This document shows, piece by piece, positions 16,240 through 40,200 of a stretch of DNA of 64,000 bases. The stretch lies in the NCBI RefSeq assembly GCF_058153355.1, contig NZ_CM177019.1; one strand, given 5' to 3'. Position 1 is the first letter of the stretch. Every line of letters begins with the position of its first letter. The position numbers are program-made.

Positions 16240-19200
16240 TAAAATTACATTAATTATCAACATGTTAGTGTGAGCAGGTCATTATTAGTCAAAATAAAAT
16301 CATTTGTTGATTTCAATTTTGTCCCATTCTCTCCCTCGGCTGTCCCTATACCGCGCCGCCATTGAATCTGATTTATGCCCGAGAAGACGTTGAGCAAATT
16401 TATCGCCAATCTGGTTCCGGTATAGCCTCGCTGACAGGCTACGCAGTTCATGGAATGTTGGCGGGTCTCCATCAAATGAGAGTCCGGAGGCATTTCTCGC
16501 CTTTGTAAAATACTTTGATACTGTTTTCGGGGAAAGCGGATCGTGATGCTTTGATGCGATTATAGTTTCACTGCTGCTGGCTTCCCTGCATTTCTGTAGT
16601 GTATCAACCAGTGAGATATTGAGCGCGTCAATCGTTAGCGTCAGCGGAATGGCGAGCTTAGCCCCTGTTTTACCCTGCTCAATGTGAAGATGGTTGTCGT
16701 TTATGTCTGACCACTTCATTCTACATAAATCGCCCACTCTCTGCCCTGTAATGACGGCCAAATCCATTGCCAGCCTCAGCCAGATAGGGAGAGGTTCGGC
16801 TGCATGGTAAATCTCGACATACTCATTAGCTGTCAGCCTTGAGCGCCTTACTTCTGACTTTGCTGTGCGGGTTGCTGTTACCGGATTCGTAGCCACATGC
16901 CCCTCGGCTATTGCTTCACGAAAAACGTCAACAAGGGTTGACCTGATTAATTTTGCGGAAGCCGCTTTACCTTCTGCTACGTAGGTATTTAGCATTGCTG
17001 CCACCTCTTTCGTTGATATGTCAGTGAGCGGTTTGTCCGGCAATTTTCTTCGAATTGCCCTGATTTTGCTGGCGTAGTCGAGTAGAGTTTTCGGTCTGAT
17101 GCCCCTCTCGCTGAGGATTGTTTCATATCGGTCAAGCCACGCATGAAGAGTGATTGCGTCAGCGCCTTTAATCCTGTCTATCAGTGACTCACGCCTGTTC
17201 TCAGATAGCAACTCAATATTGGCCTGAATAGCCTCTGAAACTGCTATCCTTCTGTCTCTGCCTAATCCGAACTCTTTACCCGTCCTTGGGTCCCTGTAGC
17301 AGTAATATCCATTGTTTCTTATATAAAGGTTAGGGGGTAAATCCCGGCGCTCATGACTTCGCCTTCTTCCCATTTCTGATCCTCTTCAAAAGGCTATCTG
17401 TTACTGGTCGATTTAAGTCAACCTTTACCGCTGATTCGTGGAACAAATACTCTCTTCCATCCTTAACCGGAGGAGGGAATATCCTGCACTCGCGTACCCA
17501 TCGACGAACTGTTTCAAGGCTCCTTGGGCGTCGCTGGCGTGCGTTCCACTCCTGAAGTGTCAAGTACATCGCAAAGTCTCCGCAATTACTCGCAAGGGAG
17601 CGAGTATTGGTTTATTTTCTCCAACAAAAAAGGAGCCGAAGCTCCTTTGATGATTAAAATTCGAATTGTCTCGCCCGAAGGCTTTTCAGCATTGGTTTTG
17701 CCCGTTCGAAAAGGGCGCTTGCTTGGTCAAGTCGTGTCGCCTCCCTTAGCAGTACATCTCTGTTTTTCGTCACCGTGTAAAAAGTTTCAAACGCGATGTC
17801 ATACAGCTTGCTCGTGTATGATGAGTTCAGTTCCTTCAATATCGGGTACAGACGTTTGCAGATGTCCTGCGCATTCTCCATCTGTACCTGCATATAGCAA
17901 AGGAGGATGATTTCTTCGTCTGTGAATTGCGGCTGAATCTGCGGCTGCAGTTCGGTTGGTGTTGTTTTTCCCTGGCTGAAATAACAGTCTTCCAGTTTTT
18001 CGAACACATCCCACGCCTGATCGGTTTCGAGCATTTTGGCATGACGGGCGGCACCGCGTTCTGTCCAGAGGATGAGCGAGCGAACGTTACGGGCGATTGT
18101 CACAGAGTGACTTAAAGACACTCTGTGCTTAAACTCACGCAATTCTGCACCTTCCAGCAAAAAATAATGTTTACCAATAACAAAACGTTCATGGTTTCGG
18201 CTGTGGTTTTTGCGAATATTAGTTACATCTGTGCCGTAAAGGTGGGCAAGAAGTTCAGTAGTAATAACGGGGATTTGGTTATGGCTGATCTGGGGTACCG
18301 TTTCTACGGTGATTTGAGTAGACATAGTCTTCTCCATATGTGTTTTAGTCTACGCTCACCAGTTAGTAGCTGGTGATCGGGTGTCAACTAGAGCCACATA
18401 TGAAGCTCCGGGCATATTCCCCTTGTGGGTATTGTATTACGCCTCTCCACCCGACCTTTGTACGGATGTAACTACGCCAAATTGCAGGCATAAAAAAGCC
18501 GCAAAGCTATCGGGTGCGGATGACCGCATATGTGTTCTAGTACGGCCAGTATGCGATAGCTTTGGCGGATTTGTCAAATCATGTAGGCCTTATCTTGCTG
18601 TAAGCCGCGCCATTCGGGCTTTTCCCCACATTTGGGGAAAACTATCTTGTCAAAATCATGCAGCCTTTCGCTCTCCTTCGATGAGTTCCTCTATTTTGTG
18701 CACTCCAGCCTCGTTGTACCGAAATGTTTCAACCTGCTTGTCATTGTGCGCCGATTTGTCGATGAACCACTTCCCGTACTTTTCTGTTTTGAGCATGTAG
18801 GTGTTGGCTATGCGTCCTACCTTGTTGGCTGAAATACCGTAGCGCTGGCCGACTTCCGTAGCAGAGTAGTAGTGCTCTGAGATAGCTGGCAGAGGTACAA
18901 CATCGCGACCAACAATCGGGTTGAACACTCCAGCTACTGCTGCCTGCTTTGATTCTGAGGACAGATTCGGGAACATATTCACCAGTCGATCCGCCACGTT
19001 CAAAGCTATTTCCATGGCTCGCGCACGGTCTAGGCTACTTTCTGGTTGCGGTACTGGTTGAGGATGGTTGGCAACCTTTTCGCGCTGATTGAAGTAGCCG
19101 TCCTCCAGTTTTTCGAACACGTCCCATGCCTGATCGGTTTCGAGCATCTTCGCGTGACGGGCGGCTCCGCGCTCTGTCCAGAGGATGAGGTGGCGTGCAT

Positions 19201-37200: not shown

Positions 37201-40200
37201 GAAGCCGATCGACTTCCAGCCTTACATCTTCACTGTAGTATTCGATAGTGTAGTTCATAGGTATCAACATAACAAAATCGTTATATGCATTCAAGGCCTG
37301 TAGTTGACGACAACACATATCCGGGGCTATATTCCTCATACGCCAGCAAAATCTGGCGTCGGGATTGAGACCCCGGATGTTTACGGAGCGATATGAGACG
37401 CGCCCGCGTCTTTTTTCATATCGTTTGCACAGTCACATTCGCGATTTATGGTGGGCTGTGTGGGGGAGCCGAAAGGCTCGCCGGTTTCCGTACCCGGTAG
37501 TCTCAACCCTGCACAGCTCGCCACCAGATGATTGAGACCAGAAGGTGGCGATAATGACCAAATGTACGGAGTTATCGTTATGCTCACTCAAATTTCTGTC
37601 GACACTCTTCCTGCAATCACCCACAACCAGATCCCCGTTATTACAACTGAACTTCTGGCGCAGTTATACGGAACAAAAATCAAAAACATTTCTGATAATT
37701 TTCTGAACAACACGACGCGATTCGTGGTAGGAAAGCATTACTTTAAAATTGAAAAAAACGAATTACGCGAGTTTAAGAACAGACCCGAAACAATCGGGTT
37801 AGTTGGTAAAAATGCCCGCTCTCTTATCCTCTGGACAGAACGAGGCGCAGCCCGCCACGCAAAAATGCTCGAAACCGATCAGGCGTGGGACGTGTTCGAA
37901 AAACTGGAAGACTGCTATTTCAGCCAGACTTCGAAAAGCGCAGGTCATCACGAGAAGAAAACCAGCGAGCTTTCTGCAAAAGATGCAAACAGTCTGGTAT
38001 GGTTGTGGGATTATGCCAACCGCTCACAGGCATTATTCCGCGAACTGTATCCGGCATTAAAACAAATTCAATCGAACTATTCCGGCAGATGCCACGACTA
38101 CGGTCATGAGTTCTCGTATGTTATCGGAATGGCGAGAGACGTTTTAATCAATCACACACGAGATGTTGATATTAATGAGCCAGACGGACCAACGAATCTT
38201 TCTGCATGGGTAAGACTTAAGAACAAAGAATTACCTCCTTCACTGCATCACTACTGACAGATTGCCAACGCAACGACCCAGCTTCGGCTGGGTTTTTTAT
38301 TGCTGAATTTTCAATATGAGAGGACATGACAATGAACGAGCTGATAAATAGCAACGCCATCAAAATGACCAGCATTGAAATCGCTGAGTTGGTGGGAAGT
38401 CGTCACGACAAGGTGAAACAATCTATTGAACGACTGGCGGCTCGAGGTGTGATCCGAAATCCCCCAATGGTGGTTTTCGAAAAAATCAATAACTTAGGGT
38501 TACTTCGTGGCGTAGAGGCTTACGTTTTTGAGGGCGAACAAGGTAAGCGAGATAGCATTATTGTCGTCGCCCAATTGTCGCCGGAATTCACCGCTCGTCT
38601 TGTTGACCGTTGGCGAGAGCTTGAAGGGGCAACCGCAAAGATTCCACAAACCTTTTCTGAGGCATTGCGCCTTGCGGCTGACCTTGAAGACCAGAAGGCT
38701 GAATTGGAGAAACAGCTTGCTCTCGCGGCACCTAAAGTTGAGTTTGCCGATCGCGTTGGCGAGTCCAGCGGAATTTTGATTGGAAACTATGCAAAGGTTG
38801 TTGGTATTGGTCCAAACAAACTGTTTGCATGGATGCGCGATCACAAAATCCTTATTGCTTCAGGTTCCCGGCGCAATGTGCCAATGCAGGAATATATGGA
38901 TCGCGGCTATTTCACAGTGAAAGAAACAGCAGTCAACACAAATCACGGAATACAGATATCGTTCACCACAAAAATCACCGGGCGTGGCCAACAGTGGCTG
39001 ACCAGAAAGCTGCTCTATAACGGAATGCTGAAAGTAACAGGGGAGGCTGCTTAATGGCTAACTTACGCAAAGAAGCGCGCGGCAGAGAATGCCAGGTACG
39101 TATTTACGGCGTATGCAATGGCAATCCTGAAACTACAGTTCTGGCACATTACCGGATGGCTGGAATTTGCGGAACGGGAATGAAGCCTGACGACCTGATC
39201 GGCGCATGGGCTTGTAGCGCGTGTCACGATGAAATCGACCGACGCACCCATAACCTCGACAACAAAGACGCCAGACTTTACCACCTCGAAGGCGTGCTCA
39301 GGACGCAGGCGATACTGCTGAAGGAGGGGAAGATTAAGCCATGAACGAATATCAGTTTGTGCTTCCATACCCACCGTCGCTGAATACCTACTGGCGAAGA
39401 CGGGGAAGCCAATACTACATCAGCGATAAAGGCCAGAAATACCGAAAAGATGTACAGCAAATAATCCGCCAACTCAAGTTAGACATTTTCACCAAATCAC
39501 GACTCCGCATCAAAGTAATCGCAGACGTTCCAGACTCCCGCCGCCGCGACCTCGATAACATCCTGAAGGGTTTACTCGACTCCCTTATCTACGCCGGATT
39601 TGCGGAAGACGACGAGCAATTCGATGACATTCGCGTAATTCGTGGTGTGAAAGTACCAGGCGGAAGGCTTGTAATAAAAATCACCGAACTGGAGAACGTA
39701 TGAACAAAGCATTCGAACGATATATGCGCCAGCGTTATGGCAATCGCTACGATCTTACCCGCGATGCTTACGGCTTCTACTGTCGTGAGGTTGTGAAACG
39801 AATGTTTGAAGTGTGGTGTCATTGCAAAGGATAGAGGGGAAGACGATGAGACTCGAACGCGTAGCTAAATTTCATTCGCCAAAAAGCCCGATAATGAGCG
39901 ACTCACCACGGGCTACGGCTTCTGACTCTCTTTCCGGTACTGATGTGATGGCTGCTATGGGGATGGCGCAATCACAAGCCGGATTCGGAATGGCTGCATT
40001 CTGTGGTAAGCACGAACTCAGCCAGAACGACAAACAAAAGGCTATCAACTATCTGATGCAATTTGCACACAAGGTATCGGGGAAATACCGTGGTGTGGCA
40101 AAGCTCGAAGGAAATACTAAGGCAAAGGTACTGCAAGTGCTCGCAACATTCGCTTATGCGGATTATTGTCGTAGTGCCGCGACGCCGGGCGCAAGATGCA

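Follow-up and report, generated by a model that had tools for sequence, protein, structure and literature searches.

The DNA analyzed here, referred to as the window, is a stretch of 64,000 nucleotides (nt) from NCBI RefSeq assembly GCF_058153355.1 (contig NZ_CM177019.1) that carries a lambdoid prophage in an Escherichia/Shigella chromosome, with yfaL in the flank. Three open reading frames (ORFs) of this prophage, designated A, B, and C, encode proteins of the ORF6N family:

17654–18337, minus strand: ORF A, ORF6N + P22_AR_C protein, 227 amino acids (aa) from ATG 18337; full-length match to phrog_377, 'anti-repressor Ant'
18656–19438, minus strand: ORF B, ORF6N and a C-terminal module that resembles a winged helix-turn-helix (HTH) and has no Pfam model, 260 aa
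37580–38257, plus strand: ORF C, ORF6N + P22_AR_C protein, 225 aa from ATG 37580

Structured regulatory RNAs lie upstream of A and C. These RNAs, which were missing from an earlier note on this DNA, place the genes in the system known from P1 immI, the IsrK-AnrP locus of Gifsy-1, and Ant of phage phi24B.

Results

Three intact ORF6N genes

The earlier note had described three regulatory-type genes of the ORF6N family in one lambdoid prophage, with a common block and similar N-termini, two of them next to xis in the early-left arm and the third in the nin region on the opposite strand. This description holds in full, as coordinates, strands, and gene order agree, the first ~120 residues of the three proteins can be aligned, and Pfam ORF6N (PF10543; gathering score 27.8 bits) matches A, B, and C with 65.3, 71.5, and 73.1 bits, respectively. 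Neither of the artifacts that the note had raised applies: the Pfam scores exclude a low-complexity origin of the block and, together with dN/dS (the ratio of nonsynonymous to synonymous change) of 0.05–0.28 against orthologues in other prophages, also exclude noncoding or antisense ORFs. Judged by these ratios, which are 0.15–0.25 for A alone, all three genes are under purifying selection. The ORFs are intact, and each covers PHROG 'anti-repressor' profiles over the full length. The likelier start of A is ATG 18325 (223 aa, MSTQ...), with GGAG just 5′ as its Shine-Dalgarno sequence (SD, 18334–18331), and C has an alternative longer start, TTG 37532, in the region of the C4-like RNA described below. 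No fourth ORF6N copy was found by tblastn across the window, and no NCBIfam model matched the proteins. With PADLOC, the ORF6N N-domain, and no other part, gave weak matches (E 1e-5 to 1e-7) to the candidate system PDC-S05. An assignment to the LexA-controlled antirepressors of the Tum, AntC, or GfoA type was rejected, as no CTGT-N8-ACAG box lies near A, B, or C and the proteins have 223–260 aa; the small Gifsy antirepressors GfoA, GftA, and FsoA are unrelated small proteins.

Domains and predicted structures

The proteins had also been called Rha-like, with different C-terminal halves. The first label does not apply, since Phage_pRha (PF09669; gathering score 29.9 bits) matches none of A, B, and C at E ≤ 0.01; its sole match among these and the neighboring gene D (described below) is D, at 26.9 bits and thus under the cut-off. 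The second statement is correct for B and incorrect for A and C, both of which combine ORF6N with P22_AR_C (PF10548; gathering score 22.4) in the C-terminal half, scoring 38.4 bits in A and 97.7 bits in C, with no match in B even at E ≤ 1. The tail of A is also found on AntA N-domains. The tail of B (~aa 125–260; 18659–19060) lacks a Pfam model, and in an exhaustive search it was present in 693 representative clusters, fused to Bro-N (30), pRha (19), KilA-N (12), AntA (5), P22_AR_N (4), and also ORF6N, which makes it a candidate for the definition of a new domain family. Comparison of the B tail with P22_AR_C tails by hhalign was not significant (probability 20%).

The AlphaFold model of B is confident (mean predicted local distance difference test, pLDDT, 89.5). 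Its N-terminal part is an α/β winged-helix-like ORF6N domain and its tail a helical hairpin followed by an HTH with a β-hairpin wing. In predicted fold, ORF6N and the B tail both resemble winged-HTH DNA-binding domains (Par, RacA, MerR, Dachshund). Searches of the PDB with the sequences of B and C gave nothing significant, nor did Foldseek with the C model against the PDB (E ≥ 4.9).

The antisense-RNA cassette of ORF C

An Rfam scan at gathering thresholds identified three RNAs adjoining the genes. Two of them belong to a cassette that leads into C:

37304–37333, plus strand: isrK-type promoter TTGACG-18-TATATT, conserved with Gifsy-1 and phi24B
37340–37416, plus strand: IsrK-family RNA including its terminator (37395–37412); RF01394, 70.6 bits against a cut-off of 50
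37365–37371 and 37382–37387, plus strand, within IsrK: target sites a1 (TTGAGAC) and b1 (TACGGA), complementary to the C4 loops
37444–37528, plus strand: member of the C4 antisense RNA family with loops GUCUCAA and UCCGUAC; RF01695, 75.9 bits against a cut-off of 45
37532–37538 and 37564–37570, plus strand: target sites a2 (TTGAGAC) and b2 (GTACGGA), b2 overlapping the SD of C

The four target sites covary with the C4 loops, with their spacing kept, across 15 loci that have at least 12 different loop pairs. As read from the sequence, the layout of loops and targets at C is that of the c4 paradigm of P1/P7. The C locus is also collinear, base for base, with isrK-orf45-anrP of Gifsy-1 and with the region 5′ of phi24B ant, and the −35/−10 promoter, the IsrK terminator, and the C4-like RNA are common to all three. 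A small upstream ORF (uORF) lies over the C4-like RNA, running from ATG 37447 to TGA 37530 on the plus strand (27 aa) and stopping about 50 nt before C.

Unlike in phi24B, the nin region here contains an inserted toxin-antitoxin pair in antisense orientation just upstream. It comprises a Gp49/HigB-like toxin (36929–37339, PF05973) and an XRE-HTH antitoxin (36631–36939), both on the minus strand, and it lies directly before the isrK-type promoter, which overlaps the 5′ end of the toxin gene.

The cassette of ORF A and the RNA-less ORF B

The third RNA lies directly 5′ of A, in a cassette with the following elements:

18548–18577, minus strand: promoter-like site TTGACA-18-CATACT, with the −35/−10 region conserved in related loci
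18527–18534, minus strand: target site CACATATG in the leader; loop 2 of the sRNA-Xcc1-type RNA is complementary to it
18492–18519, minus strand: leader terminator-like hairpin and T-run, read from the sequence, with the T-run conserved
18367–18456, minus strand: sRNA-Xcc1-type structured RNA; RF02221, 63.8 bits against a cut-off of 53
18335–18342, minus strand: second target site CACATATG, abutting the SD (GGAG) of A, with ATG 18325 downstream

The loop of hairpin 2 in this RNA is CAUAUGUG. At eight loci with seven loop sequences (the A locus and the comparison loci L004, L005, L007, L015, L020, L024, and L065), the Xcc1 loop is always complementary to a site of 6–8 nt directly 5′ of the SD of the next gene and usually to a leader site too. 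This covariation between loop and SD site holds irrespective of the N-domain of the next gene (ORF6N, AntA, or other), and the promoter, leader, and T-run of the A-type cassette are conserved among related loci. We infer that the Xcc1-type RNA at A acts as a c4-like antisense gate. The sRNA-Xcc1 family is known from Xanthomonas integron cassettes and has no mechanism assigned in phages; its position next to an ORF6N gene has been remarked in passing for APSE phages, without a mechanism.

No Rfam-detectable RNA was found upstream of B, even at E ≤ 1. In all 20 family loci sampled, an ORF6N gene is preceded by a C4- or Xcc1-type RNA, whatever its tail. The tandem of B, Xcc1 RNA, and A recurs as a fixed unit in other genomes, with ORF6N and AntA N-domains alternating in the slot of A.

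A conserved 99-nt block at the domain junction

Common to A, B, and C is a near-invariant block of 33 aa that ends in [CG]YF and is encoded by 99 nt:

17978–18076, minus strand: junction block of A (last strand and two helices of ORF6N)
19091–19189, minus strand: junction block of B
37823–37921, plus strand: junction block of C

Residues 84–116 of the B model, which make up the block, fold into the final β-strand of ORF6N and the two helices that close the domain, and this place in the predicted structural core explains the conservation at the protein level. In their DNA, A, B, and C are 88–91% identical within the block and about 59% identical elsewhere in the N-module. The earlier note had cited 18014–18080 and 19115–19195 as an example of diverged DNA; on the contrary, this stretch is inside the block and belongs to the best-conserved DNA of the genes.

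The pattern extends to 70 relatives chosen by degenerate peptide patterns. The block is 91–93% identical even where its flanks are at just 50–70%, and the fraction of identical residues encoded by different codons is 0.22 inside it and 0.51 outside. N-parts fall into 22 clusters and tails into at least 8, with many combinations between them, and the four-gamete test was passed. Where two genes have the same N-part and different tails, identity tracts stop at the 3′ edge of the block (50 of 51 pairs); in the converse pairs, with the same tail and different N-parts, they stop at its 5′ edge. The block also departs from its gene in codon usage: CTC supplies 69% of its Leu codons and TTC 98% of its Phe codons, compared with 7% and 39% outside the block. 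This difference, and the fact that the favored CTC is not the Escherichia coli optimum, make codon optimization an unlikely cause of the DNA conservation. The best reading of these sequence patterns is that the block is a shared DNA segment at a domain boundary, which may serve as a homology patch for module exchange.

Of 5426 complete E. coli genomes, at least 774 (a lower bound) carry block DNA, and a single genome may hold up to four copies. In our search of the literature, no description of a 99-nt DNA-conserved junction at the C-terminus of ORF6N was found. The blocks of A and C lie 19.7 kb apart and have exact runs of 29 and 23 nt in common in inverted orientation, a length at which rare homologous recombination could in principle invert the early region. 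In-register antisense ORFs of 50–62 aa lie over the block at 17927–18115 (plus strand), 19046–19228 (plus strand), and 37799–37951 (minus strand) and yield a seemingly conserved antisense peptide, but they are artifacts. An E-value-level Rfam scan of the A/B region (17300–20000) gave one sub-threshold match, Streptomyces-metK (20.2 bits against a cut-off of 44.2, E = 0.59), which overlaps the block of B and looks like chance.

Relatives of the three genes in other prophages

Synonymous sites between the three copies are saturated (proportion of synonymous differences, pS, 0.74–0.78). The closest relatives of each copy lie elsewhere: A is 93% identical in aa to L004, at least 42 collection blocks contain the exact protein of B, and for C a near-identical relative is L046. 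In other prophages, the same chromosomal slot holds AntA-type genes. An att-lambda prophage of E. coli 720632 (L084, 20445–22101) carries an AntA-type gene with the tail of A together with a frameshifted B-type ORF6N gene. As far as these sequences tell, the left-arm slot is conserved and its occupants are swapped or decaying. No published record of the identical three-copy layout was found; the closest have two copies, or AntA variants at the left-arm slots.

Discussion

In Gifsy-1, the isrK promoter drives a short IsrK RNA and a translationally silent read-through mRNA, IsrK supplied in trans activates translation (anrP'-lacZ rises about 100-fold), and expression of AnrP raises antQ-operon transcripts and induces the prophage (PMC4825925, Hershko-Shalev et al. 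2016). The first 120 aa of AnrP are 93% identical to those of C. The two loci differ in that Gifsy-1 has its cassette downstream of Q and this prophage has C upstream of Q; moreover, nothing matching isrJ was found 3′ of C. Deletion of ant in phi24B (vB_EcoP_24B) left superinfection unaffected and reduced a late-promoter reporter to 27–31% of wild type after norfloxacin, a defect that was complemented in trans (PMC3064807, Fogg et al. 2011). The Ant protein of phi24B is a full-length orthologue of C (84% aa identity, ORF6N and P22_AR_C), and its gene likewise lies between dam/ninE and a Roi homologue, upstream of Q, with isrK and C4 RNAs 5′ of it. The C4 loops of phi24B are different (GUGCUAA/GUUUCGA), its uORF has 30 aa rather than 27, and the records examined for this phage hold a single ORF6N copy.

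The immI region of P1/P7 (c4-icd-ant; Citron & Schuster 1990) is alike in that a two-loop antisense RNA has sites on both sides, the downstream one at the ribosome-binding site (RBS), and in that the loops determine specificity and covary. The Ant proteins of P1 belong to a domain family other than that of the three proteins described here, and this prophage shows no evident icd-like gene. The cassette of A departs further from P1 immI in its RNA family (sRNA-Xcc1) and in its apparently single specificity loop. With P22 Ant, the archetypal antirepressor (P22_AR_N + P22_AR_C), A and C have P22_AR_C in common; their N-domain is ORF6N rather than P22_AR_N, and they have C4- or Xcc1-type RNAs instead of sar, Arc, and Mnt. 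Iyer, Koonin, and Aravind are said to have described in 2002 how N-modules of the KilA-N, Bro-N, Rha, AntA, and ORF6N types are shuffled with ANT/KilAC, P22_AR_C, and ORF6C tails, and the Pfam families reportedly derive from that work. The tails of A and B follow the same combinatorial logic, with the B tail standing outside any Pfam model.

It is probable that orthogonal antisense RNAs gate the translation of A and C, which promote derepression and late-gene expression once released, and that B is ungated and expressed together with the pL operon. We propose that the three proteins are independently assembled lytic-switch regulators of the Ant/AnrP type, each joining an ORF6N winged-helix-like module to a swappable C-terminal module. 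Genes A and C would be the payloads of self-contained P1-immI-like cassettes, ordered as own promoter, leader RNA with decoy targets and a leaky terminator, antisense RNA, RBS target site, gene, and terminator. Pairing of the antisense RNA with the RBS-proximal site would block translation in the lysogen, through a C4-type RNA for C and an sRNA-Xcc1-type RNA for A; build-up of the leader or IsrK-type RNA would then titrate the antisense loops, so that the protein is made. The two gates may be independent channels because their loop sequences are unrelated. Expression of B would probably come solely from pL read-through after induction. Domain content, RNA families, collinearity with characterized loci, loop/target covariation, and module reassortment enter this proposal as direct observations.

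Several points weigh against it. Translational coupling of the Gifsy-1 type may not apply at C because its uORF stops about 50 nt early, whereas orf45 of Gifsy-1 (45 aa) overlaps the anrP start codon (ATGA). After the block, AnrP (187 aa) has a shorter tail that is unrelated to that of C, and repressor binding has been demonstrated for neither AnrP nor phi24B Ant (PMC4825925, PMC3064807). The P22_AR_C half of the C model is of low confidence (pLDDT about 45–59) and not interpretable. The gate at A is deduced from covariation and may act with either regulatory sign. Finally, the term 'antirepressor' may be mechanistically wrong, as each of the two domains predicted for B resembles a DNA-binding domain, and the IS-riddled prophage (IS, insertion sequence) may be defective, with genes that are perhaps irrelevant to induction now.

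The direction of regulation and the protein target, a repressor or DNA, are what we infer, and the predicted folds favor binding to DNA at least as much as binding to a repressor. It is conceivable, if rather unlikely, that the proteins are sequence-specific DNA-binding transcription factors or nucleoid or replication modulators that act directly on promoters such as that of the Q operon. The resemblance of ORF6N and the B tail to winged-HTH domains argues for such a role, as does the reported DNA binding of HK022 Roi, a protein of the neighboring family.

A second explanation is that the prophage is defective and the genes are cargo in decay, without any present role. Insertions of IS4- and IS66-family elements are found in the early-left arm and among the tail genes. 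Both elements occur in two copies, one element lying inside the other, which points to a probably degraded prophage; the frameshifted B-type copy of E. coli 720632 points in the same direction. However, the ORFs in this prophage are intact and full length against PHROG profiles, with dN/dS below 0.3, and the RNA elements score above Rfam cut-offs and retain intact target sites. We therefore regard decay as improbable.

The synonymous conservation of the block could also reflect an embedded nucleotide element, such as a protein site, an RNA structure, a small-RNA target, or an antisense gene, instead of recombination or descent. The synonymous deficit is strong and family-wide, and antisense ORFs lie in register over all three copies, as this explanation would have it; binding inside its own gene is also reported for HK022 Roi. 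An overlapping antisense gene is ruled out, however, by stops in that frame in 8 of the 70 relatives, and a universal element is unlikely because the constraint is relaxed in the most divergent members, which keep the peptide with 13–14 of ~30 identical codons synonymously changed. Moreover, the Rfam scan at gathering score placed no family on the block, the block edges match the module breakpoints, and Roi is a protein of another family. In view of these findings, an embedded element has little to recommend it.

The earlier note had regarded the genes as an old paralogue family rather than a recent duplication, of which the age and divergence are borne out by the pS values and the duplication within a genome is not. 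Ancient paralogy, with one ancestral gene duplicated in the phage lineage and the block kept by protein-level selection alone, would account for an ORF6N domain and block common to all three copies and for saturated synonymous sites, but it is very improbable given that each copy has far closer relatives elsewhere, that N-parts, tails, and RNA cassettes reassort, that AntA-type genes occupy the slot in other prophages, and that the synonymous deficit and odd codon usage of the block exceed what protein-level selection alone would leave. On comparison of the sequences, the three genes are not duplicates that arose in this phage; each is a mosaic cassette built from a common stock of gate RNAs, ORF6N N-parts, junction blocks, and tails.

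ORF6N/P22_AR_C 'Ant' genes, the isrK/C4 cassette, Ant of Shiga toxin (Stx) phages, and domain shuffling are already established, and the prophage is a new instance of a known system, unusual in the high number of copies that it carries. What may be modestly new is the gate function of the Xcc1 RNA indicated by covariation, the DNA-conserved recombination junction, and the unmodeled winged-HTH-like tail of B. The Xcc1 covariation suggests a function, RBS gating of a downstream ant-like gene, for an RNA family that had no assigned phage mechanism. A short junction for the exchange of regulator modules would bear on the rewiring of induction and on cross-induction of Stx-type and Shigella prophages in polylysogens. 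It is possible, albeit somewhat doubtful as a joint statement, that sRNA-Xcc1 is a second, single-loop class of c4-like gate across enterobacterial prophages and that the 99-nt junction is a dedicated recombination joint. If so, gate, N-module, and effector tail would be recombined combinatorially, and one prophage would hold three differently wired regulators of induction or cross-talk.

Prophage context and additional features

The left arm, on the minus strand, holds int (16300–17373), xis, A, B, DUF4222, and Ead/DUF551, and then SSB, HNH, Sak4, cIII, and an N-like gene; IS insertions and a CI-like repressor gene (30873–31580) follow. The right arm, on the plus strand, holds cII, O, primase-helicase, NinB, and Dam, followed by the toxin-antitoxin pair on the opposite strand and, downstream of it, C, D, RusA, Q, two tRNAs, and the lysis and morphogenesis genes, which places C in the nin region between the dam methylase gene and Q. 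The location of A and B on one strand and C on the other is the ordinary divergent pL/pR layout. Four further features adjoin the three genes:

17629–17648, minus strand: terminator-like hairpin 3′ of A
18620–18641, no strand assigned: palindromic hairpin between the stop codon of B and the A cassette
38275–38294, plus strand: terminator-like hairpin 3′ of C
38326–39054, plus strand: neighbor D, with a Rha-like N-domain and KilAC/ANT; a homologue of HK022 Roi and not one of the three copies

HK022 Roi (L001, 4656–5381) is 83% identical in aa to D and belongs to a different family from A, B, and C. An identification of C with HK022 Roi is ruled out, as Roi is homologous to D and A, B, and C lack the ANT domain. 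Clerget and Boccard reportedly found in 1996 that HK022 Roi binds DNA, and it is said to bind inside its own gene. Many Stx-phage records call the C-type gene 'Roi', and public records do not agree on which gene of the C/D pair is 'Roi' and which is 'Ant'; the present assignment clarifies these swapped labels and the loose use of 'Rha-like'.

The IS4-family element occurs twice at 100% identity (14585–16011 and 25213–26639). Its second copy is nested in an IS66-family element (25100–25212 and 26640–29001), and the tail genes hold another copy of this IS66-family element (56035–58498) at 99.8% identity. The two IS4 copies flank the whole segment from int, xis, A, and B to N, and the left arm may have undergone an IS-mediated rearrangement.

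The immunity and replication region (30471–36586) is 96–98% identical to that of the Stx2a phage F451. In the interval 39813–41178, Q is followed by tRNA-Asn and tRNA-Thr (40691–40846) and then directly by a P21-type holin gene; no ORF separates the tRNAs from the holin, although no search for stx was made in the window. The cIII thermoregulator element of lambda (RF01804, 88.5 bits) lies at 23671–23729 on the minus strand and confirms a lambda-like cIII in the left arm.

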